Below, piece by piece: positions 45,197 through 64,000 of a stretch of DNA of 64,000 bases. The translations under genes were made by a program, and so were the position numbers. Origin of the DNA: an uncultured Holophaga sp. (GTDB taxonomy: Bacteria > Acidobacteriota > Holophagae > Holophagales > Holophagaceae); NCBI GenBank assembly GCA_963664825.1, contig OY761614.1:2848001-2912000 (forward strand), read 5' to 3'. Every line of letters begins with the position of its first letter. Positions within the stretch are counted from its first letter, which is position 1. The notes below the pieces were generated by a model. The model did not search any database and was not told where the DNA came from. It saw only the letters and a program-made list of their open reading frames with translations.

Positions 45197-45232
45197 CATT
45201 GCAATTCCATTTGGAATTTGATGGTTCGGCTT

Positions 45233-46753: not shown

Positions 46754-47130
46754 GTTCGGCTTAAGGGAAGCGTCCCCGAGGACAGCCCTTGCGTGGAGGG
46801 CGGCGAGCCCTACGCTTGCCTCCCGGCCAGGGGTGCACCCCTGGCCGGCGAGCGTAGCGGTGAGCGCCTGGGGGACCCGCTGGGGCCACGCCGCCGCTTG
46901 CGGCGGATGGGGCGGGTCGCCCAGGCGCGGGGCGAAGTCCACCCGGAGCGCAAGGGCTCCCGGAGGGGTACCTCCCTGAGGCCTGCAAAGGAAGGAATGG
47001 GACCCCGAAAAGACTCGGCCCCGATTTCAACGAACTGGTCAGAGAGGTTGGTATTGCATATCGGCGCATTGCACCTATATTGATTTCAAGCGATTGCTGG
47101 ATCCACGGTCAATCGTTCACGGATGCGCCC

Positions 47131-47781
47131 ATGCCCCGACCTATGACCCTCCCTTCTCCTTGGAACCAGCTCGCGACCAAGCTGGGGGGTGTTGCTGCAT
47201 TGGCGAAGGCTTTCGGGACCGTGCCGCGGACAGTCAATGACTGGGTACATGGCAATCGAGTGCCGCGCGGCCCGGCCTGGCTTCTGATCCAGAAGGTCTT
47301 CCGCGAACATGGGCTCCAGCCACCTGAGCGTTCCAGCTCCGTGAAAGAGCGCACTGGGATAGATCCGAAGCGCTTCTTGGAAGAAGTGGCTGCTGGTCTT
47401 TCGGAGTATCGCGCCGTGTTCGAATCCCGAGCGGGTGATGCCCCTCCGTTTGCAGCCCAAATCCGGGTTTCGGATGCCCTCGCCCGCGCCGAGGCAGCGG
47501 GGATCGCTATTGAGAGGGCTGCCTATGCCGCGGCACTCTCCCTGACTCAGGAAGGGGAAGGGGAGGCTATCCAGGAGGCGCAATCACGATGTAAAGCGCT
47601 TCTGGCCACTCTTGGGGAGCCAATGGATGTCCTTCTGACAAGGCTCTCTCACGAAACGGGGCCTGGCGACTCCCTTATGGCCCATGCCATCCAGAGTCTT
47701 CAGTCGCACCGAGCTGAGGCTCTGGGAGCTCTTCGCGAAGTAGGCAATCAGCTAATTCCTGGGCGACGCGGTGCTGATTGA
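47131..47781 (+). CDS. Hypothetical protein with Cro-like HTH N-terminus
   Basis: LGGVAALAKAFGTVPRTVNDWVHGNRVP followed by a helical domain. Confidence 0.6.
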   Translation: MPRPMTLPSPWNQLATKLGGVAALAKAFGTVPRTVNDWVHGNRVPRGPAWLLIQKVFREHGLQPPERSSSVKERTGIDPKRFLEEVAAGLSEYRAVFESRAGDAPPFAAQIRVSDALARAEAAGIAIERAAYAAALSLTQEGEGEAIQEAQSRCKALLATLGEPMDVLLTRLSHETGPGDSLMAHAIQSLQSHRAEALGALREVGNQLIPGRRGAD

Positions 47782-47843
47782 CCCTTCCATCCGCATTAAC
47801 CTCCTTCCAATTCTCTCTTCCATGGCCTTCTCGGATCGTCCCC

Positions 47844-48134
47844 ATGCGCCTGGTCTGCCTCTTCGACACCCACGGTCTTCATTACTTCATCACCATTCCA
47901 GAGGGTGATCTCTTGATCCATGCCGGCGACTCATGCAATGCGGGCTCTGAAGGGGAGGTGCGCAAGTTCGCCAAGTGGCTCAGGCATCCTCCTCACCGCC
48001 GGAAGGTGGTCATCGCGGGCAACCACGACTGGTTCTTTCAGAGACGGCCCCTGCGCGCTAGGGCCTACCTGGAGCCTGAGGCGATCTACCTGCAGGACTC
48101 GGGATGCGAGATCGGTGGAGTGAGGCTCTGGGGA
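47844..48134 (+). pseudogene. Truncated metallophosphoesterase
   Basis: DTHG, HAGD, IAGNHD motifs; similarity stops at LWGS where an IS66 remnant begins. Confidence 0.8.
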
Positions 48135-48393
48135 TCGTCATCCTCAAGCGGATCTTTCAGCGGCTGCCCAGCGTCGAAGGGAAACGGTTCTTCGAGCGCC
48201 TCCTCAGCTTGGGCGCCACAGCCAGAATTCGAGGCGTGGCCTACTACGACTGGCTGCTCAAGGCCCTCCGCGCCGCCAAGCTGGTCCAGCCGCTGCCGGC
48301 CCTCGAACCCGCCTGACGCCGCCTCCTGAAGACCTGCAGCAGCCTGGACAGGTCGGCCTACGGCCTACATGCACCCGGGGGGTGAATCGATAC
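48135..48393 (+). mobile_element. IS66 3'-end remnant
   Basis: VILKRIFQRLPSVEGKRFFERLLSLG... nearly identical to the C-terminus of the 58290-59717 transposase; ends in the same IR GGGGGTGAATCGATAC. Confidence 0.88.
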
Positions 48394-48401
48394 AGAGAAT
48401 T

Positions 48402-48433
48402 GGTCAGCGTGTGATGTAGATCACACGCTGACC
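48402..48433. promoter_or_regulatory. Perfect 14-bp inverted repeat containing a CRP/FNR-family consensus
   Basis: GGTCAGCGTGTGAT-GTAG-ATCACACGCTGACC; includes TGTGA-N6-TCACA at 48410-48425. Confidence 0.55.
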
Positions 48434-48541
48434 GTCGTGAGAATTTTTATTTGGAACCAGTCGGGGGAGGGCATTTAAACTGATTATTGTAAATCGAGTG
48501 GCGCTGAAAAATGCTAGCGTCAGCAATTATATATTAATGGG

Positions 48542-51500
48542 ATGATTATGCGTCGTGCTCTATTTGCTCTCTGTCTTTCTCTAAGCGAATTAGGAACAGG
48601 ATCTCTGGTAGCTCAGAGCTATCACAACTCGTTCTCGCCGGTGAATTACGACAGATCAAGGGGCCCAAGCGTTCTTAAAGGGGGTGTTGATGTAGATGCC
48701 GCTACCGGCGCTGTTTCTGTCGAGATTCCACTGGGCCCTGGCATAGGTGCACGAGGCGCACAATTTTGTCCCACCATTCGGGGGCGACATGCCGTCTATC
48801 AAGAACAAGCAAGGATAGGCCCATCCGCTGGGAATATTCACTATTTACCTAGTGGCTGTTTTGGGATAGCCCCAGGAAGCCTTCGCCTATCTGGAGGGTA
48901 TTATTTTGGAAGCTATGATGGACCACAAGGAGAATCTGAACATTTTGGTGTGATTAATGATAAAATTACCGATACACAATTAATTCTACAAAATTTTGGG
49001 TATTCAAATGGAACAGTTGTTTCTAAGCCTACCCAAACTGGAGACTCTAAGGGTAGACCTGGATACAGGCCAAGCGATGGACTTGCCGTTACTGACTCAG
49101 GTGCGCTTGTCATTCCACTGAGCCATCCTACGGAATTTCCTCCGCTCCAATTGACTGCACCCGTTGTGGAGGGGTATTCCCAAGCAATGTATAGCATTCC
49201 GCAACGTATATTGGTTGTAAAAGGGGATATTGGTTATGAATATGTATTTTCAAATCAGGCATGGTATATCCCTGTTGAAATGGATGATAGTGCGATTGTA
49301 GCAAACGTTCGCGCAACTGAAACAAATGTTTTTCTGCGGTGGGCTAGTGATAAAACTCCAATCGAATTTCCGCAATTGGTGTCTTTTGATAATTCCTTTT
49401 TGGCGTGGCGCGTTAATATATATCGTCCAGACCTGCTTAATGTTGCAATAGATCAAATTCAATATTCGTTAAGCCGTATTCTAAACAGGTTTGGTGAATA
49501 CATCCAATTTGATTATGGCACAAGATCAACTGGGCTTGATTATATGGCTGAATGGTTTCGGGATGGAAAATCGACAAACATAAAAATAAAACAAGAATAT
49601 ATTTCTCAAACGAGCGGTTCAAATTGGTGGGATACTCAGTATCAGGTGCGTCTGTCTTATGAAGGAGTTGAACATACAAGCTATTTGATAAACTTGGGGT
49701 TACAGAACTCATCTGCGGAAATTCGAACGGAAAAGTGGTGGGATAACATTTGGCATGGGTTTATTCCTTTGGGACGGTCTACGGCTGAGTCTGTATCTAC
49801 AATTGCGCCGATGATTAATAATAAAATTATAAGCGTTGTGCCGGAGTCTGCGCCTTCTGAAGCTATCGAATTCACATGGGAGTATCTGCCTATTAGTGAT
49901 GAGCTACGCACTGTGCCAGTGCGTCTTACAAAGGTCACTTCACCCGGTCGAGAAGTAAGCCTTTCTTGGGAAGCTTATGAATACATGCCGACAATGATGG
50001 GTGATTTTGGGTGGTGGATATTTACCAATTCGTACATAAAAGACCCCCTTGGTGCTCCAAAAATATATTATGCATTTGGTGTAAAACAATTAGATGATAA
50101 AGATACCGGAAATGGTCAAGTGCGAACAACCTCATTTATTCGTAAAGTACCTACCCCTGATTGGACGTGTAAAAGTCTATGGAAAACTACCGATTTTTAT
50201 GCGGTTGTGATCTACCCTGATCACTCTAAAACAATGTACCGTTACCTAGACGCTAAGGAGCTAACGGTACCTGCAGGGGCTCCACCTGCAGAGGGCTGTA
50301 TCCGGGCGACTGCTTTCTGGAAGAACTTCCCAATGGAGGAGCGCCATTACGGATCGCTTACGTCATGGGAATCAGATATTTCAAAGACTCCCAATAATTG
50401 TAGCGCTCAGACTGTGATATTAAGGGACAGGCTGACTCTTATATCGCCTGGAAATCCTAGCGGGATATATTCCGGCAGCAGTCAAGTCATTCCTACTCGC
50501 GTGCGAGAGCTGGATCTGTTGAATCAAAGGCTGACATCAAGTGAACTTGTAAATTGGTCTTCGACGTCCCTTGGTTGGAGGCAGCAGCGAAAATTGACTT
50601 ATATGGGAAATGGCATTCCAGATCTAACTATCGACATTTCTAGCCTTGAAGACAAAAAAGCACAACCAGCTGATCGTAATCCATTGGTGCAATGCGTAAT
50701 TGATATGGAATATAGCACGAATCTATCGCTTTGGTGGTTGGCTCGAAACATTTGGAAGCAAAGTACGATGGTGATGGATGCGACTGGCAGTACTACTAGT
50801 CCATCTGGGTTCTTGATAGCAAATAGCACAAAGACATTAGATGATCTAAATAGGGTTACGCAGGCTCAAACAGGAGCATCCTTCTTGATGTCGACCGTAT
50901 TCTCTTATGATGATCGTAAAGCGTTGCCTCAAAGCGCAATACTTCGGTCTAGTCAATCTTTTCCTCTGCTATTTAGTGGGAATATTGGATCAAAATTTGA
51001 TTACGATCAGTCATATGGATTTTTATCGACAATTCACCCATCTCTTTCAACTGCAAACCTGACGGTCAGTCAGGTCAGTGATGCTGCGAATCGTCCCACA
51101 AGCCAGGTTGGAATGGATAGCTTGTCAACGGGCATTAAATGGGATCCACTGGGGCGCCTCAATCTGATTACCCCTCCGGGTGGGGATGAGTCAACCTCAT
51201 ACACTCCTGATCCTGACGGTCTTGGGGTTGTGATTGAGAGAGGAGTAGAAAAAACGCAATTGCGATATAATGCCTATGGAGAATTGGTTCTCGAGAGAAA
51301 ATTTGATGCAGCACATGGAGTTATACACCGGGCGCTCGGATATGATTTGGCTGGTAGGAAAATCTGGGAAACTACATGGCGCAAGGGGAGTGGTGATGAG
51401 TTTGGTTGGAATAAGCCACTAGCTCCAGATGATGAGGAAACCCTTCCTTGGACCGAAGCGACTAACGAATGTGCCTCATTCGATGTTCGAATTGTAAATG

Positions 51501-54220
51501 GCCAAGAAACATATGTTTGCACAAGCTATTTGACGGTAGATCACCCATATTCAGTCAGTTATGTAAATAGCACTCATACATTTTATGATGAATTTGGTCG
51601 AGTGATTCTCACTGTAGATCCGAATGGATCTGCCACAAAAATTGATTATAGTTTTCTTGTAAAAACTGTTACCACGGGCCTTCACTGGGATGGTGCAAAT
51701 GCAAACCCCACCCCGGCAACGGCTCGAACGATATTTCTGCAGGACGCTAATGGGCGTCTCGTTAAAGTCGTAAATGCTCTGGATCAAGTGACTGAATACT
51801 TTTACGATGGCGCAGGTAGAATTACTGAAGTCCGACAGTACCCTACATCCTCTTGGAATGGTTCTATGTGTGTGGGGACTGGAACCCCACAGAGACGGTT
51901 TTGGGTATACAATGGTATAGGTTGGCTGGTGGTGTTGGATCAACCCGAAAGTGGAGTGACCTACTACACATCCTTTACCGTGCAGGGGAAACCCACTGAA
52001 ACTATCTATGGTCTCCCTTGTGGTTGGCGTCCTTCCGACTTGAATGTTCGTGACAGCAGCGCCTTTAGCAGAGTGGGCGCAAAAGCCATAAATGTGCAAT
52101 ATGACGATATGGGAAGGACCAAAAGCACACAATCGAGTGATGGTACCGTTGATCAAGCGAACGAATATGGAGCCCCTGGCGTTGTTGCGGCACAAAACGT
52201 TGGAAAACTGGTGAGGATTACCACTAGGCAGGGTTTTGAAAAGACATTAGATTATGATCCTGGAACTGGTCGACTTTCAGCTTTAAGACAAAAAATGGAC
52301 GGATTGCCGCCATTTGAACAATCAATAGGGTACGATACCTATGGGCGAGTTGCCTTACGAATATATCCAGACCAAAAACAGCAAAGGATTCAGTATGACA
52401 ATGCCAAAGGGATCCCAAGCAATGCATATTTTAATTCCAACCAATTAGCAACCTTTTGCTGCGATGATGTTTGGTTATTGCATGCGTTATCTTTTGCAAA
52501 TGGGGCTACATCAACTTTTTTATACGACCGAGATCAAGTTCGACTGGCTAGTCTGAAACAGGAGGTGCCTGGGTCCCTTTTAAAAACTTGGAAATATAAT
52601 TATAACGATGCCGGGCAACTTGGTACTGATGGCGAAAATTGGTACACACATGACCAACTTGGTCGGCTAACTCTGGCATATGTTCGTGATCTATCGGGCA
52701 TCACTTGCCAAGGGGTTCGCCAAGAATTTGCATATGACTCATTCGGAAATCGTCTGAGTGCTGCCACCTGTTTGGTCAGTAATTGGGAGGCTGGGGCACC
52801 CCCCCCAAGTGCGCTAGTCAAGGGAGTGCTTCCGAATGCTCTGACAGCCCTTAATTTCTCGTTCAATAGGTCCGATGCTGCCTTAGCCCGAAATCGGCTT
52901 CCCACAGCTGGGGTCAATGGGGCAGGCACAGGCGCGCTGTACGATACTTTGGGAAATCTGCAGTGTGTCAATACCATTCCCGGGGCTGTGGAAAGTCAGG
53001 TAGCATTCACCTACGATGCTTTAAGCCGAGTTGTGACCCAAAGCTATGGGTCAAATAGTTCTCGCAAAACTGAGGCCTACCTCTATGATGACGAAGGGCT
53101 GCGGATCAAGGTTCTCGAGTCCACTGGGAAAATTCGCTATAACATCTACAACGAAGCCCGCCAGCTCATCGCCCAGTACGAGAAGACGCCCTCCGGTCCC
53201 CTGACCTGGAAGAAGGACATCGTCTACGTCGGCACCAAGGAAATCGCCGAAGTTTCCTCCGACGGCAAGACCAGCGTCACCCTCTGCGATCACCTGGGCA
53301 GCCCCCGCTATAGCTGGGACGGCACAACGCTGACCGAGCAGAAGTTCTTACCGTTTGGTGAGCCGCTAGCCAGCCCGACCGCATCGGCGAAGTTCGCCAA
53401 GGGCTTCACTAACCACGAACAGACGGACGCATCTGGCCTGATCTACATGCAGGCTCGGTTCTATCTGCCTGCCTATGGGCGCTTCGCCAGCCCAGATCCG
53501 GCGCGGGATCAGCACTTTGAGAACACCCAAAGCTGGAACATCTACTCCTACGTCTGCAACAACCCCGTGATGATGACTGACCCCACCGGGATGTTTAGCT
53601 TCAAAGACGCTTGGGACTACACCAAAGACGTCGGAAGATCTTTGGTCGGCGAAGCAAAAGGGGTTGCTGCGGTTGGCGTAGGGATCGCTAAGGCCGTTGC
53701 CCATCCAGTGGACACTGCAAAGGCTCTCGGCAATGCGGCGGCTCATCCCATCGCGACTGCAAAGGCCGTTGGCAACGCGGTTTCGAGTGCTGTAGCCAAT
53801 GCCAATACACCCGAGCAGGCTGGGAAACTGGTTGGGAACGCCCTGGCCAATGCTTTCCTAGTGGCAGCTCCATTTGCCAGTGCCGCAGGTGGTGCTGGAG
53901 AGGTGGCTAATGCCGCAGCGATAACGGAACGCGCTGGGGCGACATCGGGACTTGAGGCCGCTGTCGGAGAAACCAGGGTCACGCGCTGGATGGGGGAAGC
54001 AGAGTCTGTAGCCATGAAGGACAGCGGGAACCTCCAGTTTGGCGCTGGCGGGAGATCCTACGTCACCGACCTTGGAGCCCCCCAACCGGGTGGGACTGGA
54101 CCAGTCCAGGTTAATTTCAATGTTCCAACCCAAAGTTTGCAACCGGCTGGCAATCAAGGCTGGTATCAGATTCTGGATGCAAAGCGCCCTCCGGTTACCG
54201 GCATTGAGGTGGTAAAGTGA
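48542..54220 (+). CDS. Large Rhs/YD-repeat polymorphic toxin (1892 aa)
   Basis: YD repeats (YDEFGRV, YDGAGRI, YDSFGNRL); core end GFTNHEQTD.SGLIYMQARFY...NIYSYVCNNPVMMTDPTG; variable C-terminal domain. Confidence 0.93.
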   Translation: MIMRRALFALCLSLSELGTGSLVAQSYHNSFSPVNYDRSRGPSVLKGGVDVDAATGAVSVEIPLGPGIGARGAQFCPTIRGRHAVYQEQARIGPSAGNIHYLPSGCFGIAPGSLRLSGGYYFGSYDGPQGESEHFGVINDKITDTQLILQNFGYSNGTVVSKPTQTGDSKGRPGYRPSDGLAVTDSGALVIPLSHPTEFPPLQLTAPVVEGYSQAMYSIPQRILVVKGDIGYEYVFSNQAWYIPVEMDDSAIVANVRATETNVFLRWASDKTPIEFPQLVSFDNSFLAWRVNIYRPDLLNVAIDQIQYSLSRILNRFGEYIQFDYGTRSTGLDYMAEWFRDGKSTNIKIKQEYISQTSGSNWWDTQYQVRLSYEGVEHTSYLINLGLQNSSAEIRTEKWWDNIWHGFIPLGRSTAESVSTIAPMINNKIISVVPESAPSEAIEFTWEYLPISDELRTVPVRLTKVTSPGREVSLSWEAYEYMPTMMGDFGWWIFTNSYIKDPLGAPKIYYAFGVKQLDDKDTGNGQVRTTSFIRKVPTPDWTCKSLWKTTDFYAVVIYPDHSKTMYRYLDAKELTVPAGAPPAEGCIRATAFWKNFPMEERHYGSLTSWESDISKTPNNCSAQTVILRDRLTLISPGNPSGIYSGSSQVIPTRVRELDLLNQRLTSSELVNWSSTSLGWRQQRKLTYMGNGIPDLTIDISSLEDKKAQPADRNPLVQCVIDMEYSTNLSLWWLARNIWKQSTMVMDATGSTTSPSGFLIANSTKTLDDLNRVTQAQTGASFLMSTVFSYDDRKALPQSAILRSSQSFPLLFSGNIGSKFDYDQSYGFLSTIHPSLSTANLTVSQVSDAANRPTSQVGMDSLSTGIKWDPLGRLNLITPPGGDESTSYTPDPDGLGVVIERGVEKTQLRYNAYGELVLERKFDAAHGVIHRALGYDLAGRKIWETTWRKGSGDEFGWNKPLAPDDEETLPWTEATNECASFDVRIVNGQETYVCTSYLTVDHPYSVSYVNSTHTFYDEFGRVILTVDPNGSATKIDYSFLVKTVTTGLHWDGANANPTPATARTIFLQDANGRLVKVVNALDQVTEYFYDGAGRITEVRQYPTSSWNGSMCVGTGTPQRRFWVYNGIGWLVVLDQPESGVTYYTSFTVQGKPTETIYGLPCGWRPSDLNVRDSSAFSRVGAKAINVQYDDMGRTKSTQSSDGTVDQANEYGAPGVVAAQNVGKLVRITTRQGFEKTLDYDPGTGRLSALRQKMDGLPPFEQSIGYDTYGRVALRIYPDQKQQRIQYDNAKGIPSNAYFNSNQLATFCCDDVWLLHALSFANGATSTFLYDRDQVRLASLKQEVPGSLLKTWKYNYNDAGQLGTDGENWYTHDQLGRLTLAYVRDLSGITCQGVRQEFAYDSFGNRLSAATCLVSNWEAGAPPPSALVKGVLPNALTALNFSFNRSDAALARNRLPTAGVNGAGTGALYDTLGNLQCVNTIPGAVESQVAFTYDALSRVVTQSYGSNSSRKTEAYLYDDEGLRIKVLESTGKIRYNIYNEARQLIAQYEKTPSGPLTWKKDIVYVGTKEIAEVSSDGKTSVTLCDHLGSPRYSWDGTTLTEQKFLPFGEPLASPTASAKFAKGFTNHEQTDASGLIYMQARFYLPAYGRFASPDPARDQHFENTQSWNIYSYVCNNPVMMTDPTGMFSFKDAWDYTKDVGRSLVGEAKGVAAVGVGIAKAVAHPVDTAKALGNAAAHPIATAKAVGNAVSSAVANANTPEQAGKLVGNALANAFLVAAPFASAAGGAGEVANAAAITERAGATSGLEAAVGETRVTRWMGEAESVAMKDSGNLQFGAGGRSYVTDLGAPQPGGTGPVQVNFNVPTQSLQPAGNQGWYQILDAKRPPVTGIEVVK

Positions 54221-54612
54221 TGGAAAATCATTCTTTATACGCTATCGGCTGTAATGCCATTGACTTCGATGCCTGTAAGGCTGTGGCCGAAGAAGAGTGT
54301 GGTCCAGTCGAAGTTCAATCAAATCGAATTTTTATTAAAACAAGCAGCGGCAGCATTCAGATGGAGATGTGCACGAACGACATGTTCAAAGATGAGGTCA
54401 TTGTTATTTCTGTGAATGAAGTGCTGCAAGACCTTGTGGGGCAGGCGTGGGGAATCCTGATTGGTCTTTTTGTCCAATTTGATACGCCTGTTTGGATATC
54501 TACCTACAATCGGCAATACCTTGAAAAGTATGGGGATGTTGTGGACCTAGAAATCAACGAAACTAGTGGCTTTTTAATGAGTCCTGGTTCCTTCGACAAA
54601 ATGATTTCATAG
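54217..54612 (+). CDS. Putative immunity protein for the full-length Rhs
   Basis: Small acidic low-GC ORF overlapping the Rhs stop codon. Confidence 0.7.
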   Translation: MMENHSLYAIGCNAIDFDACKAVAEEECGPVEVQSNRIFIKTSSGSIQMEMCTNDMFKDEVIVISVNEVLQDLVGQAWGILIGLFVQFDTPVWISTYNRQYLEKYGDVVDLEINETSGFLMSPGSFDKMIS

Positions 54613-54727
54613 GTCTAGGCGGTAGGTGACCATTGTTCTTTCGCAAGAAGAAGCTCCCCGAGATCGTCATCCTGCCTGCGGGGTTCAGGGTCAATGACAC
54701 CGTGATCAGCAGTTTCTCCTCATCCCG

Positions 54728-55483
54728 GTGCGGCAGTGGTTCAGTTGGCTGGTCAAGCAGGGGCACCTCCCGTTCAGCCCGGCGGCGGAGCTGGAGCTGC
54801 CCAAGGTGGTGCGCAGGCTGCCCAAGGCCATCCTGTCCGCCCAGGAGGCCGAGGCGGTGCTGGCGATGCCCAACGTGGCCACGGCGGTGGGGCTGCGGGA
54901 CCGGGCGATCCTGGAGACGTTCTACTCCACGGGCATCCGGCGGACGGAGCTGACTAAGCTGGCCATCCAGGACGTGGACCGGGAGCGCGGGACGCTGTTC
55001 ATCCGTGAGGGCAAGGGCAAGAGGGACCGCATGATCCCCATCGGCGAGCGGGCGTTGGCGTGGATCGCCGCCTACCGCGACCGGGCGAGGCCCGAACTGG
55101 TGGGGCTCCAGGACGACGGCACGTTGTTCCTGAACAACCTGGGCAGGCCGCTGAAGCCGTTCCACCTGACCATCCTGGCCGGGCTCTACGTGAAGAAGTC
55201 CGGCATCGGCAAGGAGGGTGCCTGCCACCTGTTCCGCCACACGATGGCCACGCTGATGCTGGAGAACGGCGCGGACACCCGCTACATCCAGGCCATGCTC
55301 GGCCACGCCAGCCTGGAGACCACGCAGATCTACACGAAGGTGAGCATCCGGGCGCTGAAGGCCATCCACACGGCCACGCACCCCGGCAGGATGCCGGAGG
55401 CCGCCCGGAAGTGGTTGGAGAAGGAGCCCGACCCGACCGCCGCAGACCTGCTGGTCCGGCTCGGCCAGGAAGACCCGGAATGA
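54728..55483 (+). pseudogene. N-truncated XerC/XerD-like tyrosine recombinase
   Basis: YSTGIRRTE, GKGKRDR, HLFRHTMAT, MLGH, TQIYT all present; in-frame stop at 54695, so the N-terminal core-binding domain is largely missing. Confidence 0.85.
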
Positions 55484-55758
55484 AGGCGGAGCAGGTCATC
55501 GACGGCATCCCCGTGAACCCCGTGCTGCCGGTGGCGTTCTACGACACCCCCAACGAGGCCAGGCCCGCCAGCCAGGACGAGTGGTGGGACCGGCCCTACG
55601 TCATCACGGTGCCCAACGAGCACTGGCCCCAGGGCGTCCGGTTCGACACCTACTGCCTGGACGGCGGAGCCTGGGACCGGCCCACGGCCTGGGGCAAGTT
55701 CGGGACGTTGGAGGAGGCCATCGCCTGCGCCAAGACCGGCCCGGCCTGGCGGCGCTGA
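55480..55758 (+). CDS. Hypothetical protein
   Basis: ATGA overlap with the recombinase stop; 92 aa, Trp-rich (CLDGGAWDRPTAWG). Confidence 0.65.
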   Translation: MKAEQVIDGIPVNPVLPVAFYDTPNEARPASQDEWWDRPYVITVPNEHWPQGVRFDTYCLDGGAWDRPTAWGKFGTLEEAIACAKTGPAWRR

Positions 55759-55864
55759 GGCCCGTGGGGGAGCGAGGGGTGGTCGAGCGATTTATTACGG
55801 GAGGGACCCACAAGACCCTGGGATAGTTGTGAATACCTGGACGTTCCAACTTGAGGGAGACCGC

Positions 55865-56446
55865 ATGGGCCTCGTGGTGAGCAGCTTAAGTCATGTCCCT
55901 TTGAACGCCGACCGGGATTACTTCATCTACCTCCTACGTGGGGGCTGGAATAGCGCCCTGGACCAGGTGCTGGAGTCGCATTTCATGCGTTTCGCTCAGG
56001 AAGCAAGCGAGACCAGGTCCGCCGTCATCGCCGGGCTGCATGGCAGTCACTTCGGCAACGACGTGTTCTCGTGGCACCACATCAACGGCGAGGACGGCGA
56101 GGCGGCACTGCCCGCAATCCTGCTGACGACGGTTCACCCGAAATACTTCGAGCACGAAGGCGATCCCTTCTGGAGGACCAATGCGCAGAAGGACTACATG
56201 CAGTTGATCCCGTTGAAGAAGTGGGCCAACTCTGCGGATGACGTCATCACCCTGGTTCAGAGGATCTTTTCGGACATCAAGGAGCACAAGGAGCTGCGGG
56301 ACTTCACGGTCGTCAAGGAGATCCGGAGAGCGGGGGGGACGGCGCTCATGGATGGCGTGGTCCTCCAGCCCAACTTCCTCGGCCTGGGCGCTGACCTGAA
56401 GAAGTTAGCAAAGGCGGTTCGGGGCAAAGGGGCGGCGAAGAAGTAG
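55865..56446 (+). CDS. Hypothetical protein
   Basis: 193-aa ORF with GAGGGAG RBS and C-terminal LQPNFLGLGADLKKL. Confidence 0.75.
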   Translation: MGLVVSSLSHVPLNADRDYFIYLLRGGWNSALDQVLESHFMRFAQEASETRSAVIAGLHGSHFGNDVFSWHHINGEDGEAALPAILLTTVHPKYFEHEGDPFWRTNAQKDYMQLIPLKKWANSADDVITLVQRIFSDIKEHKELRDFTVVKEIRRAGGTALMDGVVLQPNFLGLGADLKKLAKAVRGKGAAKK

Positions 56447-56740
56447 CCTCTCTGTGGTGCCGAAGGCAGGGACCAGATCGGCGGCGGGGTAGGCGGGCCG
56501 AGATCCGGGGAAGCAGTGAATGGTTGGGGAGGTTACCCTGATGGGGTGCCTCCCCATCTCGATGTTTTTCCTTTAGCCGCTCTCCCTGGCCGCCGGTCCC
56601 CGGTAGGCCGTCAGGGCTGTGGTGGCGGGAAAGTCGCGTCAGGGGGTCTCCGGGGCTACAATGGGTTCAGTTCATTGAAAAGCCCCGTGCCACAAGGGAA
56701 AGTGCCCTCTCGTAGGCGGGAGTTGCATAGGGGCACCCAC

Positions 56741-57505
56741 ATGCAGGCTCGCTTCTATCTGCCGATATATGGGCGGTTTGCATCTCCAGATCCGGCGAGA
56801 GATCAGCACTTCGAAGACACGCAGAGCTGGAACATCTACAGCTATGTGCAGAACAACCCGGTGATGAGCATTGACCCCACTGGGATGGTTGATAACCCTT
56901 TCCAGGAACAATTGACTAGATCTAGAATTGTTGATGGAAAACAATCATCAGAGACGATTTCAATCAAAGGTCATAATTTAGATGCTTTGGGCATAAAGGT
57001 GTATGAAACGGTCGGTAAACCTGGTAGTTTTAGTGATGGTGTTTTGTCTGCTGGGCGTGGCGATGTTTCATTCGCACTGGATGCAAAAGGCTCATTTAGT
57101 CAGAATGGATCACCATCATTCACGGGGAGCTTAGATAAGCTTGTAGCTTGGGATCAACAGCTGTCAGGCAAAAAATTCGATGCGGCTATTGGATGCACGC
57201 TGAGTGCATCGGCTGATGTGGCTACACTTGGGCTCGCTGGGTCTGCGGAAAGGGGTCTGGCTGGCGCCTTTAAATGGGTAGCGGGGTTGTTCGCGCCAAA
57301 GGTGCAAAATCCAATCGGCATTGCTAATACGGTCAACGGGGTAGCCACAGGGGACAAATCGACTCCCGGAAAGGCTTTACTGTCAACGGCAATGTCCATT
57401 GCGCCAATTGTTGGAACCCTTAAGGGGGTTTCTGATGCAGACAAACTAAACAACCATGGGGTCGAATTAGTGAAAGAAAAACCAAAAAACATCAAAGAAC
57501 AGTGA
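56741..57505 (+). CDS. Orphan Rhs core-end plus toxin tip, cassette A
   Basis: Begins MQARFYLPIYGRFASPDPARDQHFEDTQSWNIYSYVQNNPVMSIDPTG, near-identical to the full Rhs core end; new Gly/Ala-rich C-terminus. Confidence 0.88.
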   Translation: MQARFYLPIYGRFASPDPARDQHFEDTQSWNIYSYVQNNPVMSIDPTGMVDNPFQEQLTRSRIVDGKQSSETISIKGHNLDALGIKVYETVGKPGSFSDGVLSAGRGDVSFALDAKGSFSQNGSPSFTGSLDKLVAWDQQLSGKKFDAAIGCTLSASADVATLGLAGSAERGLAGAFKWVAGLFAPKVQNPIGIANTVNGVATGDKSTPGKALLSTAMSIAPIVGTLKGVSDADKLNNHGVELVKEKPKNIKEQ

Positions 57506-57577
57506 TTACGTGCCATTTTTCCGAAAATGTTAAAACGAAAAATAAGCAATCAGTTATGAACGCGGAGAGAAATTCCA

Positions 57578-58060
57578 ATGAATATTGAGCTTGATGTTGG
57601 AGAATTTGTTGTTTCAAAAATTCGCAAACGACCATTGTTCTTATTTTTTGGACTACTATTCAATCGCATTGCTCCTGGTTTTTTGTTGTTCCCAATGTTG
57701 ATTTATTCGATGGTGCGCCCAAAGGAAATGGTATCTGCCATTTCGTCTGAAAATTCCTGGCTTATTGTGTTATTTTTTTTGATAGTTGCGTTGGGGATTG
57801 TTGGTCAGTCAATTATTGTGTATGATTTTTTCACAAAAACTATCGCTATAACCAATCAAAGAGTGTTGATAATAAAGCAAAAATCAATTGTTTCGTATGA
57901 ATTTAGTAAAATATTGTCGCATGAATCGCGTGACGGCTTCTTTGCATCCGCGCTTACATTAAAATTCGATGACCAAAATATTGTTGTACTAGATTATTTG
58001 GACCCTTCGAGTGTGGGTGAATTTGAATCCGAATTATTAAAATGTAAAACAACAAAGTAA
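57578..58060 (+). CDS. Putative membrane immunity protein, cassette A
   Basis: Very AT-rich; two TM helices and a PH-like C-terminal segment (AITNQRVLII). Confidence 0.7.
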   Translation: MNIELDVGEFVVSKIRKRPLFLFFGLLFNRIAPGFLLFPMLIYSMVRPKEMVSAISSENSWLIVLFFLIVALGIVGQSIIVYDFFTKTIAITNQRVLIIKQKSIVSYEFSKILSHESRDGFFASALTLKFDDQNIVVLDYLDPSSVGEFESELLKCKTTK

Positions 58061-58198
58061 TTTCCTAGTGTTTATCATGAACACTAAAATTTCTCTGGTC
58101 GTCAACTCCAAATAATCGACTGTCCCTCGCCAAGTCTCGATCCATGCCGATTACACGTTCCAACCCACAGCAAGCTAACACCACGCCCCTCCTTCGGG

Positions 58199-59826
58199 GT
58201 ATCGATTCACCCCCTTTGTCCCAGCGACCGCGTAAGCCGGTGGCAGCCACCCGTGATGGGCTGGTGATGTACCGCTTGTCCTGTCAGCCTCAGGCCGGTT
58301 CCAGTGCCGGTAGGGGCTGATTCGATTGGGCAGCGTGGAGGGCCTTGAGCAGCCAGTCGAAGTAGGGGACGCCGCGAATGCGGGCGGTGGTGCCCAGGCT
58401 CAGGAGCCGTTCGAAGAATCGCTTTCCGTCCGCGCTGGGCAGCCGCTGGAAGATCCGCTTGAGGATCACGAGGGGGCGCAGGGCGCGTTCGGCGGCGTTG
58501 TTGGTGGGTTCCACGCCTTCGACCTTCAGGAACACCCAGAGCTTGTCCCATTTTCGGAGGAGGTCCCTCCCGAGGTTCCGAGCGGCCCTGTGATCCATCG
58601 TGCTGGCCTGGATCAGGCCGCGTTTGAGCCGCGCCAGATTGAGGGCGGTGCAGGCCCGCAGATCCTTGCGGCTGATCTCGTTGGCCCGGAAGGCGTGCCA
58701 CAGCGCAAAGACCTCCTCCTGCTCGGTCAGGAGGCGCTTCCCCAGCGCGGCCACCTCGGGCTTCGCGGATTCGCTGAGGGCGATGAACTCCCTGCGCAAA
58801 TGGGCCCAGCAGAACTGGCGAACGGCAGATTTCAAGGCGTTGTAGGCGCCGTACCGGTCCGTTCCGATGACGCCACTGAAATCCTCGGGAAGCATCGCGG
58901 TCAGGGCCCTCGCCCCACGGGTGTCGCTGAAGTGGAAGAGGGCCGTGCGGGCGGAAAGGGCCACCCAAATCCAGTCCCGATCCTTCCGCCCAAAGCCGGT
59001 CTCGTCGAGGTTGAGCACGTCCGCCGTACGGATCTGCTGGGAGAGGTCCTCCCAGGCGGGCAGCAGATGGTTCCCGAGGGCCACGCCGCTCTCATGCAGC
59101 CAACCGCGTGAGACCGCTACGCCCGTCACCTCCAAGAGGAAACGTTGGAGCGGCGTCAGGCTCATGCGGCCCTCCGTGCGTAGATAGGCCGCCGCAGCCT
59201 GGAGGCGCGGGCCGATCCCGCCGGGCGCGGCCTCCGGTGGCAGCGAAGCCCGGACTTTTCGCTGGCAATGCGGGCAGATGCCCTCCTCCAGCGCGTAAGC
59301 GATGACTTCTGTGAGTCGCTGAGCCAGATCCACCACCCGGTGCAGGCGCGTCCCGGTGATGGCCCCTGAAGGAACCTCGCCGCGGCAGTGGGGGCAGCAG
59401 GCGAGGGGCACCGCCACGGTCCGATCCTCGCTGCCCTCCGGCAACATCACCCGAGCGGACCCCTTCCGTCCCGGTTGGCCGCCGCGCTTGCGCCCCGTGG
59501 GCGGCATCGGTGGTTTGGGCGGTGCTGCGGGCCCGTCCGAGCTGGGAGGCTTGCTGCTGTTGCGACTGTCTTTCCCGAGCCGCTCCTGGAGGGACTCCAG
59601 CAGCTTCTCCAGACGTTCCATCGTCTCCCGCAGGCGAGTCATTTCCGCACGCAGTTCCCCGTTCTCGGCAGCCAGCGCCAGATAACGCGGATCAGTCAGA
59701 ACGGGATCAAGCTCCATCCTTTAGAATCTGACTGGTTTGAGACCGAAGTACAAGTAAATTATTCACTTGCAGTGATTCCCCCCCCCTCAATCACGAGTTG
59801 AACCTGAAGGGGGGGTGAATCGATAC
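58199..59826 (-). mobile_element. IS66-family element (1628 bp)
   Basis: Perfect IRs GTATCGATTCACCCCC; 8-bp target duplication CCTTCGGG at 58191-58198 and 59827-59834. Confidence 0.95.
58290..59717 (-). CDS. IS66 family transposase
   Basis: DSRNSSKPPSSD, NLDETG, QFCWAHLRR, EPTNNAAERALR. Confidence 0.95.
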   Translation of the reverse strand: MELDPVLTDPRYLALAAENGELRAEMTRLRETMERLEKLLESLQERLGKDSRNSSKPPSSDGPAAPPKPPMPPTGRKRGGQPGRKGSARVMLPEGSEDRTVAVPLACCPHCRGEVPSGAITGTRLHRVVDLAQRLTEVIAYALEEGICPHCQRKVRASLPPEAAPGGIGPRLQAAAAYLRTEGRMSLTPLQRFLLEVTGVAVSRGWLHESGVALGNHLLPAWEDLSQQIRTADVLNLDETGFGRKDRDWIWVALSARTALFHFSDTRGARALTAMLPEDFSGVIGTDRYGAYNALKSAVRQFCWAHLRREFIALSESAKPEVAALGKRLLTEQEEVFALWHAFRANEISRKDLRACTALNLARLKRGLIQASTMDHRAARNLGRDLLRKWDKLWVFLKVEGVEPTNNAAERALRPLVILKRIFQRLPSADGKRFFERLLSLGTTARIRGVPYFDWLLKALHAAQSNQPLPALEPA

Positions 59827-59951
59827 CCTTCGGGAGGGGTGCTGCTATACGCCGTAGAACGCTCTAGGATGTGCCTGGCGTGCTGTGGGCATGGTTGGTG
59901 ACCTGAGCTGCTGCCGTGTGTCCTGGGTGCAGAGGAGCGCGGGGGGTAGTC

Positions 59952-60001
59952 GGTCGGGGCTTGGTCGGGCATCGGTCGGGGTCCGGTCGGTAGGTGGTCG
60001 G
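59952..60001. repeat. GGTCGG x5 at exact 11-bp period
   Basis: Hexamer starts at 59952, 59963, 59974, 59985, 59996 with variable 5-bp spacers. Confidence 0.85.
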
Positions 60002-60178
60002 GCTTGCTGATTCCCTGCAGAGGCAATAGTGGCGCGTGGATGCCTGCTGGGATCGCTTCCACGCGTCTGGAGCCGCGTCAGGGGGTCTCGCTGCTACCCT
60101 GGGATCACGATCTTTGAAAAGCACCATCCCGTCTAAGTTTGCTGCCATTTGAGCGCAGAACCGCAGCAGGGCTGCCTT

Positions 60179-60898
60179 ATGCAGGCTCGCTTCTACCTCC
60201 CCATGTGGGGCAGGTTCGCCTCACCCGACCCGGCGCGGGATCAACACTTTGAGGAAACGCAGAGCTGGAATATTTACAGCTATGTAAGAAATAACCCGGT
60301 GATGATGACGGACCCCACAGGGGAGTACGCCAAAATCACGGTGGAAGGTAAAAATATGACAGTTGTAATTCCTGTATCCTTTGGCGGTGCTGCTTCCGCT
60401 GAGCGGATTATGGCATTTACAAGGGGCATTGAATCTCTAAGTGGTAAGGTCGGCGACATGAATGTGAGTTTCAGAGTTGATACTTCAGCTGACCCAGAAG
60501 CAAATACAACAAATCAGGTCAACTTCAAAGAAGGTAAGGGCACATCAAACGTTGAGCCAAGGGGTGGAAAAATGGTCGCCACTCTATACGCTGGCACTGA
60601 ATCAAATAGCGAAAAACTTGCAGCTGTATCTGGACACGAAGGAGTGCATCTTGCTGGGGCACTGGATGCCTATAAGGTCGTTGACGGCAAAGTTGTATTA
60701 AATCGGGACTCCGGTGGGAAAGATAGGCTTGGCAATCCAGATACACGGAAAAAGACGGATGTAATGTTTGATCCAGCGAAAGGCAAGGTATCAAAGGATG
60801 ATGTAAAGCAAATGCAAAATTCTGATCTTCAAAAGCTATTCAAAAAAGAAAATCCAAATGGGCTTCCAGTCCCAAATAATGATGTTGAGAGGAAATGA
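60179..60898 (+). CDS. Orphan Rhs core-end plus toxin tip, cassette B (HExxH metallopeptidase-like)
   Basis: Begins MQARFYLPMWGRFASPDPARDQHFEETQSW...DPTG; tip contains GHEGVHLAGALDAY. Confidence 0.88.
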   Translation: MQARFYLPMWGRFASPDPARDQHFEETQSWNIYSYVRNNPVMMTDPTGEYAKITVEGKNMTVVIPVSFGGAASAERIMAFTRGIESLSGKVGDMNVSFRVDTSADPEANTTNQVNFKEGKGTSNVEPRGGKMVATLYAGTESNSEKLAAVSGHEGVHLAGALDAYKVVDGKVVLNRDSGGKDRLGNPDTRKKTDVMFDPAKGKVSKDDVKQMQNSDLQKLFKKENPNGLPVPNNDVERK

Positions 60899-60899
60899 A

Positions 60900-61331
60900 A
60901 TGAAAACCATGGCGTTTCTGTTCGTTTTGATGACATCGTTGCTTGTGGCAGCTCCCACCCCACAAAGCGATAAAATAGTTGCATCTGGTCTTGAAATAGC
61001 TGTTGGTGGAGAAATGCAAATACGAGAAAGTCGCGAACAGCATGGCGAGGTATATAATTTCCAAATCCTTCTAAAAAAAGGGCGTTTGATTGGGCGGGGG
61101 TGCATCGCCTATCGGATTGATGATCCAGTCGCAAAGGGCTTCCAAACAAGAACGACCGTACATAACGGCATTGTTTGGAAATACGCAATTACTGGGAATA
61201 CCATCTCATGCGTTGGTAAGCTCTCCAACTCGCAAGAAGCTCCATCCATCTCGCTTTATGTAAAACATGCTCCATATATCCGGAATCCTGAATCAATGTT
61301 TAAGGCAATCGCTATAAAGAAGGTTGAATAG
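60900..61331 (+). CDS. Putative exported immunity protein, cassette B
   Basis: MKTMAFLFVLMTSLLVA signal-peptide-like start immediately after the toxin stop. Confidence 0.7.
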   Translation: MKTMAFLFVLMTSLLVAAPTPQSDKIVASGLEIAVGGEMQIRESREQHGEVYNFQILLKKGRLIGRGCIAYRIDDPVAKGFQTRTTVHNGIVWKYAITGNTISCVGKLSNSQEAPSISLYVKHAPYIRNPESMFKAIAIKKVE

Positions 61332-61472
61332 GTTGCTGAAAGGATTCGAGGACTGTTATCCCTCGCCATCTCTCAATCCTACCGTTCCAACCCACGGCAA
61401 GCTAACGTTCCACCCCTCACAAAGCCTAAACCTCGAATCGAGAGCCTAGAGAATGTATTGCCCTGCTTGTAA

Positions 61473-62183
61473 TCACCCGATGCCCGTGATACGGGCACCA
61501 CGGATGTTGAGGGTTGCGATAACGCCACGAACCTTCAGCTCCTCGAGGAATTGAGGGAAGGGCCGGACGTGTGGATGGGCTTGCGCGGCTGTGATGGCCT
61601 CATCGATTACGGCGCGAAACTGTTGTTTTTTGGTGGGAGCTCTGGTTCGCTCCGCAAGGGCACGCTCTTTCCCGCGGAGGCGAGTTGTGTCCAGGGCCTT
61701 CCGCTGATGAGTCCTCCCACTTCGGGTCGGGCTCGGCACGGGCTCGAGGCCGAACTGTTCCTCAATGATTCGGAGCGCGCTTTCGACCTTCCGGAAATCT
61801 CGAAGATGCTCACGGGCAATGCTCCCGTCGGCTCGAACTCGAGTAGCGACGATGTGGACGTGCTCGTGGGGGCGGTCGTGGTGCTGGACCACGGCGTAAC
61901 TGTCCCACCCCATTTCTCGAGCCACATCTGCCGCCGCCAGGAGCCAACTCTCCGCTGTGAGATGCTCACCTGGAAGCAGGGAGATAGAGAGGTGTCGGAC
62001 GGGTTTGGTGACCCGCGCCCGGAGTGCGGCGATGGTCCTAAGTTCGGCGGCCAGTTCTTCTGGGGACTCCCCTGCGAGGGTTCCCCCGAGGAGTACACCC
62101 CGAGGTTCACCGTTCTCCTTGCCTCGAAATAGGTACCGGAGGAGTGGCGCAAAATCAGTCCCCTTGATGAGCTTGCCGATCAC
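61473..62183 (-). CDS. MOBP-type relaxase (probably C-truncated)
   Basis: IGKLIKGTDF..LLRYL, KPVRHLSISL, HHDRPHEHVHIV (HUH motif); ends abruptly at ITGIG. Confidence 0.88.
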   Translation of the reverse strand: MIGKLIKGTDFAPLLRYLFRGKENGEPRGVLLGGTLAGESPEELAAELRTIAALRARVTKPVRHLSISLLPGEHLTAESWLLAAADVAREMGWDSYAVVQHHDRPHEHVHIVATRVRADGSIAREHLRDFRKVESALRIIEEQFGLEPVPSPTRSGRTHQRKALDTTRLRGKERALAERTRAPTKKQQFRAVIDEAITAAQAHPHVRPFPQFLEELKVRGVIATLNIRGARITGIG

Positions 62184-62526
62184 GACGGAGCTCCTTCTGG
62201 ACGTGGAGGAGAAGAATCCGCAACGCCTGGATCTCGGTTTGGAGGCGTTCCTCACCCGGGAAGACACCGCTGTTGAGGGACCTCGCTATCTGGTTGAGGT
62301 TGCTCCCGACCCGGCCGAGCTCCTGAGCGAAGGCGCGGTCGATGTTGGGAGGCGGCACCTTTCCGAGAAGTAGGCTTCGACCGAGTGCGGAGAGGCTGAT
62401 GCCCCGAGTACGTGCAGCCGCCTGGAGCTGGATATGCTCAGTCCCTGTTAGGCGAATTGTGAGAATGACGGCGCGGCGAAGCTCTTCCGCTACGCGGTGG
62501 GGTCGAAGGGATTCGATAGTGCTCAT
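62155..62526 (-). CDS. mobC: MobC relaxosome accessory protein
   Basis: LTIRLT..E...L...A...GISLS (RHH), ELGRVGSNLNQIARSLN. Confidence 0.9.
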   Translation of the reverse strand: MSTIESLRPHRVAEELRRAVILTIRLTGTEHIQLQAAARTRGISLSALGRSLLLGKVPPPNIDRAFAQELGRVGSNLNQIARSLNSGVFPGEERLQTEIQALRILLLHVQKELRRDRQAHQGD

Positions 62527-62669
62527 GGATGGTTTCCTTTCCTTGCCGGAAGGCAGACGGGGTTCAGGGGCATGGCCCCTGGCGAGCGGCAGACGAATAC
62601 CGAGGCGAGCGGAGCGACCCGAGGTATTCGCTCTGCCTTGCTCGCTAGTCGTGAACGGGTGGAGCCTGC

Positions 62670-63347
62670 CTACTGAATCGGGTTTCTGGGTTGTAACCTT
62701 CGGTCCCGACTTCCCTTCGGGAACTCGATCCACATGGACATGTGTTGTAAGCGACTGAATACAGGTGCTCCGTAGCGCAGTAATAGCGCTTCTGCATTGC
62801 AATTGGTGGTGCAGCTCGTGGGCTTGAAGTGATCGTACCGGTGGCGAATCACGCGCTCGACGAAGGCCAGACCTTTATCAGCTTCACGGCCGCCCCGCTC
62901 CTTCATTTCGGCTCCAAGGTCATCCAGAAACAGGTAGTCAACATGGAGGAAACGCTGCAGGAACCGTTCCTGGTCTGCTGCCCGCAGTGCCATGCTCTTC
63001 CATTCCGCCACGAGGTCAGGAACGCTCCGCCAAAGTAGGGGCAGCTTTGAAGATTCGATAAACTCAGGTGTGTGGGAACCGTACCGCTTTCCAAACACCA
63101 GCTTTGCAAAGGCCGCCATTGCATAGGTCTTTCCCACTCCTGTGGTGCCCACGAGAAGGACTGCATTAGGGCGGGTTTTCATAAACAAGTCCGTGAGTAA
63201 GCTCTCGATCCGTCGACGGATTTGTTCGTCCAGGTGGGATGGATTTGCATGGATCTCGGATGGCGGGATTCCTCCGCGCTCGAGAAACTCCTGGATTCGA
63301 CCTTCCCGTGAGATTTGGATTTTGGGGAACTCAAATTCCTGGTTCAT
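62670..63347 (-). CDS. DnaC/IstB-like AAA+ ATPase (helicase loader)
   Basis: LVGTTGVGKT, LFLDDLGAE, RY...KPTSCTTN, SRL...DRR. Confidence 0.87.
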   Translation of the reverse strand: MNQEFEFPKIQISREGRIQEFLERGGIPPSEIHANPSHLDEQIRRRIESLLTDLFMKTRPNAVLLVGTTGVGKTYAMAAFAKLVFGKRYGSHTPEFIESSKLPLLWRSVPDLVAEWKSMALRAADQERFLQRFLHVDYLFLDDLGAEMKERGGREADKGLAFVERVIRHRYDHFKPTSCTTNCNAEALLLRYGAPVFSRLQHMSMWIEFPKGSRDRRLQPRNPIQ

Positions 63348-63607
63348 CGCGCCCCCCTATCTCTGGTACTTGGCTTTTCACGCAGCTGATCAAGCAAGGC
63401 TTGATCAGCATCCGAAAGCCCTGAAGATTCATCCGCAGGGGCTGCTCTCACTTCTAGGTTCTGCGCCAGCAGGTTGGCGATGCTCTTTCGTTGGAAGAGC
63501 CAAGGTAGGGAAGCTCGCCATCCGTGGGGTCCATGCCCGAGATAGAACGGAATTCGAGGGATTCGGCGGATGGCCTCCTGGAGGTGATCCATGCCGCCGA
63601 GGCTATC
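63344..63607 (-). pseudogene. C-terminal fragment of a phage-type replication initiator, cut by IS5
   Basis: PFYLGHGPHGWRASLPWL resembles C-termini of phage replication proteins; ATGA-coupled to the DnaC-like ATPase. Confidence 0.55.
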
Positions 63608-64000
63608 TAGTCGGCCTTGCGTAACCCAAGGAACCCATATTTGACGGGGATTTACGGGAACCTATCAAGTATGCCGTACACCAGAAAGGCAGGGATGAAC
63701 GCCCGGAATCTGGTGTACGAATGAAGCCGAAACCGAAGATGTACCCGCGATCTACGAAGGTGTAGGCCGGGAGCTTGCCCGTCACCCGCTCCACCTGGTC
63801 CAGTTGGCCATCCAGCGTGTGCCCGTCGTAGGGATTGCCGGGACAGGCCTGGATGCCCACCACGAAGCCTTCCCTGTGGGTCACGGCCAGGCTCACCTTG
63901 ACGCCGAACTCGTAGGGCTTGTGAGCCTTCCCCTTCGCGATGCACTCCACCTCCGGCGCCGAGAGGCTGTAGACCTTGCCTTTGGTCGTGCGCTTTTGCG
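63608..64000 (-). mobile_element. IS5-family element remnant (internal deletion; runs off the window)
   Basis: VECIAKGKAHKPYEFGVK, GNPYDGHTL, VDRGY, then loss of frame and similarity. Confidence 0.88.

Follow-up and report, generated by a model that had tools for sequence, protein, structure and literature searches.

A full-length Rhs gene, a truncated recombinase and two orphan tips

We analyzed a window of 64,000 nucleotides (G000:C1:2848001-2912000) from the 3.47-Mb genome of an uncultured Holophaga species, referred to here as G000. The window carries a full-length Rhs toxin gene, two orphan toxin tips and, between them, a gene for a Xer-type tyrosine recombinase (Xer), and our subject is the mobile element to which this recombinase and the sequences preceding the orphans appear to belong. 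The Rhs gene (48542..54220, on the plus strand like all genes of the system) encodes 1892 aa with YD repeats and an Rhs-associated core that ends in DPxG (PF05593, TIGR03696 and TIGR01643). Its tip is TreTu_C-like, a predicted ADP-ribosyltransferase (PF24691, E 1e-9), and is followed by a putative immunity gene of 131 aa (54217..54612) that was assigned by position and overlap and has no Pfam or NCBIfam match. Orphan tip 1 (56741..57505) consists of a 49-aa core fragment and a tip for which a search for relatives returned only tip 1 itself; the putative immunity gene behind it (57578..58060) encodes a bPH_3 domain and, as judged by eye, membrane segments. Orphan tip 2 (60179..60898) is metallopeptidase-like, with an HExxH motif and weak matches to peptidase families, and has relatives behind other Rhs cores. 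A search for longer proteins bearing tip 2 found none, which is weak evidence. The putative immunity gene of tip 2 (60900..61331) has a 35% identical relative after an Rhs orphan in genome G016. Family matches thus give a hint for two tips, TreTu_C in the attached one and HExxH in tip 2, and none for tip 1, and toxicity and cognate immunity are predictions.

With YD repeats, a core running to DPxG and unrelated tips that are each followed by a small gene, the region is an Rhs polymorphic toxin locus, and the anatomy given in the original prediction, one full Rhs gene, a Xer gene and two orphan tip/immunity pairs, was correct. So was the statement that the three tips are unrelated, which extends to the three immunity proteins (best cross-match E 0.7). 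The orphan tips have a GC content of 0.44-0.47 and the attached tip of 0.59. The core homology of both orphans opens at the ATG of the codons for MQARFY (56741 and 60179), whose counterpart in the full gene lies at 53447, as had also been noted. An 11-bp stretch that opens the MQAR codons (53447..53457) is the same in the full gene and in both orphans; by analogy with the E. coli locus described below, it is the putative crossover region (attL). A 10,085-nt contig from a public sequencing run of another study equals positions 48400-58227 without any difference, and this part of the window is thus not an assembly artefact. Within the full gene, the N-terminal part (48542-53050) has 45% GC and the core end 58%, so that the gene looks chimeric upstream of the MQARFY site too.

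The recombinase gene (54701..55483) was predicted to lie between the full gene and the orphans, and it does, but its 5´ truncation had been missed. The catalytic domain is kept and the first ~94 residues are gone: the product is 83% identical to the 346-aa Xer of genome G049, in an alignment that begins at residue 95. Full-length relatives occur in G049, G075 and G016, among others, and no intact copy of the window Xer was found in G000. The protein belongs to the PRK01287 subfamily, as NF002331 fits it where the models of chromosomal XerC and XerD (TIGR02224 and TIGR02225) fail; it scores 204 and 202 bits against cut-offs of 335 and 330, and a full-length relative, at 227 and 229 bits, is also below them. 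Two cargo genes, likewise missed, separate Xer from orphan 1. The first (55480..55758, 92 aa) belongs to no family but is found behind Xer in related elements too, with DNA homology to loci L158 and L165 that spans the gene. The second (55829..56446, 205 aa) belongs to an unnamed family; it has a feature score of 0.97 to unnamed clusters, with recognition just under the threshold, and no Pfam match.

The upstream motif as the end of a mobile element

The same non-coding motif precedes both orphans at the near-identical distance that had been reported, starting at 56635 and 60074, 106 and 105 nt before the ATG. The copies, 80% alike across 56 nt (E 1.6e-5), have no third counterpart in the genome. 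A pattern built on the motif matched 12 of 133 genomes of the family, and a reversed control matched none. Outside G000 there were 17 matches, nine followed by an Rhs core fragment, seven by a core-less tip of low GC content and one by neither. In metagenomes, a pattern built from our seed sequences had 13 matches, some of them redundant. All 13 are followed by the same terminal sequence and then by a tip in frame, and nine of the 13 have a Xer gene upstream on the contig. No match was found in viral contigs. As judged from what flanks it across genomes, the upstream motif marks where a mobile element ends: it is the conserved terminus of the element that lies upstream of it and that belongs with the previous tip. 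In the window, the right end of element 1 occupies 56526..56740 (core motif 56635-56686, toxin junction 56740/56741) and that of element 2 occupies 60042..60178 (core motif 60074-60125, junction 60178/60179), each junction being a putative attR. In elements of the Bryobacterales type (L118:9590-9700, L123 and L110), the end is composed of about four related subsites with ~32-nt spacing, reminiscent of iterons or accessory binding sites.

A shared motif also follows each immunity gene, as predicted, beginning 63 and 28 nt past the stop codons (58123-58179 and 61359-61406) with only these two copies in the genome. The first copy is annotated here as 58121..58179 and the second, which is degenerate, as 61359..61406, both on the plus strand. 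The first 29 nt are matched in five other genomes of the family, beside opposite-strand frames that look transposase-like by eye, one of them with HTH_21. Three of these five genomes have no Rhs core within 1.5 kb, nor was one noticed close by; in G002 and G004, the motif follows toxin arrays. A partner inverted repeat is plausible at one of the five loci. The downstream motif is likely an insertion-sequence end and not a cassette site, an assignment that concerns the first 29 nt; the second half was found in none of the 132 other family genomes and in no viral contig. The proposed searches with the two motifs in this genome and its relatives gave a divided answer, in which the upstream motif is tied to Xer genes and tips while the downstream motif occurs away from Rhs genes.

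A primase-Xer element family behind polymorphic toxin genes

The unit that emerges from the comparisons exceeds a cassette between two motifs: it is a mobile element consisting of a primase gene, a PRK01287-type Xer gene and cargo, and it occurs in several phyla, where it follows Rhs and CdiA-type toxin genes. A scan of species genomes returned at least 454 relatives, and 76 loci were kept, from Acidobacteriota, Pseudomonadota, Planctomycetota, Verrucomicrobiota and others. The intact order is tip, immunity gene, often SymE and a divergent helix-turn-helix (HTH) gene, a CHC2/Toprim primase, Xer, optional cargo and the conserved end. Among the matches listed, the primase lies directly upstream of Xer at 59 of the 64 loci with enough DNA; the strict end pattern is found downstream of Xer at 17 of 70 loci, on the reverse strand at none of 70 and upstream at none of 65; an Rhs core follows Xer within 3 kb at 16 of 50; and at the 23 loci with an Rhs core all matches are co-oriented with Xer. 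Most of 94 frames downstream of the Xer genes belong to no Pfam family, and a few match Ntox10, Imm27, Colicin D, YwqJ deaminase or Imm70. Two small circular records hold the unit. A search of 50,697 phage records for the primase DNA gave no match.

The family is varied in its layout. Elements of the window's own Xer clade (L207:7994-8762 and L208, in G075 and G049, and L173 in G145) lack the divergent HTH gene and carry a gene that looks resolvase-like by eye, which precedes an N-terminally shorter primase. On an Enterobacter plasmid (L068:16359-40942), a CdiA-type gene is followed by three copies of the element in tandem, and tips are repeated. In G018 (L214:261-11400), the first orphan is 100% identical over 537 nt, from the junction, to an Rhs fragment upstream of the element, which points to re-integration or amplification of the same unit. 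Other loci have an integron-like look. In G132 (L165:2250-14700, read on the minus strand; also L167, L158 and L033), tips are stacked and one tip-immunity pair is duplicated, and in G007 (L174:280-13700) a long array of ~400-nt repeated cassette-like units, which looks like an integron array, leads to the element-end motif with no toxin after it.

Both copies in the window are relics of such elements. The Xer gene of the first is truncated, no related primase was found in G000 (the best candidate is a 26% DnaG-like match), and the two orphans are split by an IS66-family element (58199..59826, minus strand). Of the second, besides the right end, there remain 11-bp-period repeats (59950..59990, plus strand) like those that intact elements carry a short way upstream of the Xer start. 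On its own, the present-day locus is likely inactive. The closest relatives of end 1 are metagenome ends (145 of 186 nt) and that of end 2 is an end in G004 (66 of 83 nt), and as relatives of each other the two window ends rank only 24th and 11th of 29; because the nearest relatives differ, one duplication does not explain both ends. A wetland run contains Xer, cargo and end sequences ~97% identical to unit 1, and in the same run an Rhs core fragment runs into a different tip, although the joint that links them has a 35-nt side and is weak. As for the IS66-family element, which the original prediction had also missed, it is bordered by an 8-bp target duplication, lies outside the toxin system and has 15 further near-full copies in G000. 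Its target, a short hairpin between the orphans, is a perfect GC hairpin with a four-base loop (58186-58198 and 59827-59839).

The junction is fixed within each recombinase clade

Toxin sequence starts ~65 nt past a conserved hexamer of the element end. In the window's Xer clade, the junction at MQARFY recurs 10 times in eight genomes, 64-67 nt from the motif, behind ends that are themselves divergent. Other Xer clades have other junction sites, among them EQT, an SQT site located in the linker that follows DPxG and, in enterobacteria, DPIG, besides further positions. The uniform MQARFY start that had been expected of other orphans was therefore not found, as starts are heterogeneous across genomes, but they are fixed within each recombinase clade. 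On a Xer tree of 39 rows, chosen for a readable junction and labelled by eye with 17 junction classes, the junction class needs 16 changes, the minimum for that number of classes, and none of 200 shuffles came as low. The window Xer falls in a clade of eight with 100/100 support, seven of which have the MQARFY junction. Among the closest Xers, G098 is an exception, with a broken Xer and an orphan that begins further up.

In a Lonsdalea junction, a 6-bp core is flanked by inverted arms, which is the structure expected for a Xer-type site. The SQT site is present in frame in the full Rhs genes of G132, G016 and G002, and the tip on the full Rhs gene of G132 occurs as an orphan behind the element end in L156, with homology that starts at the SQT site. 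At CdiA-type loci, both Paraburkholderia orphans begin at the same base, and an Enterobacter orphan shares just 14 bp with the full gene, at the VENN codons, a match that is weak alone (E 0.09).

Empty and occupied alleles in E. coli

One variant of the element is present in 56 of 5,426 E. coli genomes and, in the four regions that we opened, lies at the rhs locus between ansP and pptA. Every element-adjacent E. coli tip seen begins at the same hexamer. Genome E189 could be compared with an intact empty allele, and the comparison revealed a 16,714-bp insert inside rhs, bounded by a 15-bp direct repeat and bringing a new tip in frame. On the left, 900 nt match without a single difference; of the 75 nt that follow the repeat, 27 are mismatched, and 2,300 nt of the displaced right side contain two mismatches. 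The displaced old tip is identical from the first base of the repeat and sits behind the element end. The short direct repeat and the empty allele are therefore documented in the E. coli member, and the window has its 11-bp repeat.

The last orphan of E189 was also found in three other genomes, from exactly that base, among the 60 of 118 records examined. These three genomes have no element, and the tip is on the resident gene, which is intact in one and split in two. At a second E. coli rhs locus the element is located at the same hexamer before the tip, and element-free strains bear the tip behind a decayed core. Empty alleles for two other E. coli orphan tips were sought and not found. A further orphan-tip query ran into an ISAs1-type end and was uninformative.

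A model for tip exchange and its alternatives

Given these observations, we think it probable that the window locus preserves the remains of two insertions, likely independent of each other, of a primase-Xer element. This element is predicted to integrate at a specific site, in the conserved end of the Rhs core, and thereby to swap the toxin tip. Our best reading of the enzymology, drawn from sequence comparison, is as follows. The free form would be a circle, replicated by the primase, with an attP at which the element end meets a short core fragment followed by a tip. Xer would recombine this circle with the resident gene at the matching short sequence, which in the window is that of the MQAR codons, such that the new tip enters in frame and the old tip and its immunity gene are displaced downstream. 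The replacement would parallel the way phages restore the 3´ end of their target gene, and the toxin-immunity pair could pay for the element's keep. In the window, tip 2 would have been the resident tip until element 2 brought tip 1, and element 1 would then have brought the present tip. Later deletions would have taken the primase and the 5´ end of Xer from element 1 and nearly all of element 2, with the IS66-family element arriving last. The suggestion in the original prediction that the orphans are discrete units and not random leftovers survives to the extent that their defined starts are tied to a recombinase; the unit, however, is not a small cassette between two motifs.

Several observations weigh against this model. 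Recombination itself was seen nowhere in the data, and neither an excision joint, such as the proposed search for circular cassettes asked for, nor an empty allele of the window locus was found in contigs of four runs, bearing in mind that contigs drop rare forms. The tree documents clustering, not its cause: kin share labels, and the rows were chosen and labelled by hand. In G075 the homology extends ~12 nt further left, and the MQARFY site has, by eye, no clear palindromic arms. Among the matches listed, the strict motif is absent at 53 of 70 loci and an Rhs core match at 34 of 50. One of the two circular records, of 8.8 kb, also fits two other origins, namely a crossover inside the primase of tandem copies and an assembly that collapsed. 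In E. coli, one of four informative orphan tips was found fused to a full gene, and the E189 insert holds two element copies, which implies a history of several steps. Lastly, G016, G098 and E. coli loci also hold orphans with longer core fragments and no element end, indicating that homologous routes also act at such loci.

These last orphans lead to the alternative of RecA-type C-terminal displacement (Jackson model), in which circles of core and tip integrate by homology, the primase-Xer element is a mere carrier, and the junction was made once and then inherited. Homologous displacement, which has been published as a model (PMC2935791), would give the same gene order, orphans with long and variable core fragments are common, and a Xer clade and its junction could be inherited together. 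In E. coli, however, the crossover is confined to 15 identical bases, with the 27 mismatches in the next 75, and the element is found at the same hexamer before the decayed orphan as well. Fifteen base pairs are shorter than RecA normally needs, and the window core fragments are also poor RecA substrates, as they have 112-119 of 150 nt in common and their longest exact matches span 14-17 nt. In addition, ten junctions with divergent ends and unrelated tips fall at the same base. We therefore regard homologous displacement as an unlikely source of the junctions.

It is slightly less likely still that the upstream motif is a promoter or leader that expresses the orphans from an internal ATG as toxin-antitoxin pairs, a role that would be compatible with integration by a primase-Xer element. 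An in-frame ATG does open both orphans, and internal expression of orphan Rhs tips has been shown in Salmonella, according to the available text of PMC7043789. However, most junction classes have no ATG, one junction of the MQARFY class reads AAG, and sigma-70-like sites number two in the region against 3.2 expected, with none in either end; a promoter and terminator scan of the region did not rise above shuffles.

The original prediction had favored an integron- or shufflon-like array, in which a resident Xer moves small tip-immunity cassettes between the upstream and downstream motifs. Both motifs do flank both orphans, and in G132, G016 and L158 tips directly follow the previous immunity stop from the same short SQT-type start site with no element between them, so that an integron-like side stays open in these relatives. 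Against an array, the upstream motif behaves as an element end that follows Xer genes in various phyla, copies of the downstream motif occur away from Rhs, and all tips and sites are in direct orientation. The integron-integrase model (TIGR02249, cut-off 265 bits) gives the window Xer 93 bits and a full-length relative 112, and the local Xer is truncated. An Rfam scan of 44000-64000, run without a dedicated attC model, gave no match. With an integron integrase and inverted cassettes missing here, the local recombinase broken and stacking at one site seen in relatives, we consider an array at this locus quite improbable. The least probable alternative, in which one cassette was duplicated in tandem long ago and the copies then diverged, could account for the second half of the downstream motif, which is confined to the two window copies and may give the flanks a shared origin, but it is largely refuted for the upstream ends, each of which has closer relatives elsewhere than its counterpart in the window, and it has to contend with unrelated tips and immunity genes and with a junction that recurs in seven other genomes.

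Relation to known systems

The primase-Xer model bears on a question that has been posed since 2009, namely how Rhs and CdiA genes gain tips while old tips are kept, for which a pool of circles was predicted and no enzyme named. In the available text of PMC2935791, C-terminal displacement via episomal circles is proposed to occur by homologous recombination, with no known integrase. Our observations agree with that model in the in-frame new tip, the old tip and immunity gene pushed downstream and the predicted circular pool of tip carriers; they differ in that a defined primase-Xer element adjoins the tips, always at a fixed base. Orphan/immunity arrays with integrase or XerC/D genes nearby have been noted before and site-specific recombination suggested (PMC4927057, PMC5727410 and the polyimmunity loci of PMC3482391), although the portions of these papers available to us give no defined element, end sequence, target site or empty allele. 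For Vibrio effector arrays, the corresponding text reports no evidence for integrase-mediated insertion (PMC5361080). The rAID-1 system of Bacteroidales, as summarized in its accessible text, combines a XerD-like gene with immunity-only arrays (10.1101/471110). It resembles the locus described here in having a Xer-family recombinase beside low-GC antagonism genes and repeated intergenic motifs. However, its immunity genes sit downstream of a 5´ recombinase. The loci studied here also contain toxin tips, with the recombinase placed between them, have the site inside a toxin gene and combine the recombinase with a primase that moves along with it. Term look-ups in PMC8138268, PMC3150448, PMC8987985, PMC11606950, PMC4428218, PMC10210955 and PMC6336857 returned nothing on the element in the text covered.

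Integrons and shufflons share with these loci recombinase-linked variable modules, the newest first, and the stacked tips of some relatives, but we found no integron integrase, Rfam match or inverted cassettes, and the recombinase moves with the element. Integrative elements and satellites with a P4/PICI-like layout (PICI, phage-inducible chromosomal island) restore the 3´ end of their target gene. They resemble the present element in having a tyrosine recombinase, a primase-type gene, a divergent HTH gene, a short direct repeat and an empty allele; here, in contrast, the restored end is a different toxin domain and not a copy, and there was no match in phage records or viral contigs. The element thus works like an integrative element that restores the 3´ end of its target with a different toxin, and it does not match integrons, shufflons, rAID or chromosomal XerC. 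We did not find it described in the literature searched; subscription papers and supplements were outside this scope, and a prior description is possible. The window locus is a real, decayed member of an element family that is apparently undescribed so far.

More broadly, we lean toward the view that PRK01287 "XerC" genes mark a phylum-spanning, as yet undescribed family of self-replicating integrative elements that target polymorphic toxin genes. Each clade would use its own codon run (MQAR, EQT, the SQT linker site, DPIG and apparently VENN of CdiA) to swap tips in frame and archive the old toxin-immunity pair, with some clades stacking element-free tips in an integron-like manner. Such elements would then constitute the pool of episomal tips that was predicted in 2009, and would be a main engine of toxin diversification. 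The analysis supplies a candidate vehicle, a candidate enzyme and base-level target sites, and since E. coli has intact members, the question can be addressed by a plasmid assay. If the view is correct, many xerC and primase annotations would be re-labelled as parts of a mobile-element family, and recombinases that fuse reading frames in a clade-specific manner would be added to those known.

Surroundings of the locus

A second Rhs locus in G000 (L042, G000:C1 about 3467000-3470000) has no detected element end or orphan. To the left of the full Rhs gene, the island (44186-48329) contains the end of a type I restriction subunit gene, a second IS66-family transposase, a YdaS-like gene and a metallophosphoesterase gene cut by an IS66 fragment. 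On the minus strand right after orphan 2 (61473-63347) are a relaxase gene (PF03432) and a gene for an IstB-like ATPase, possibly parts of a mobilizable element.

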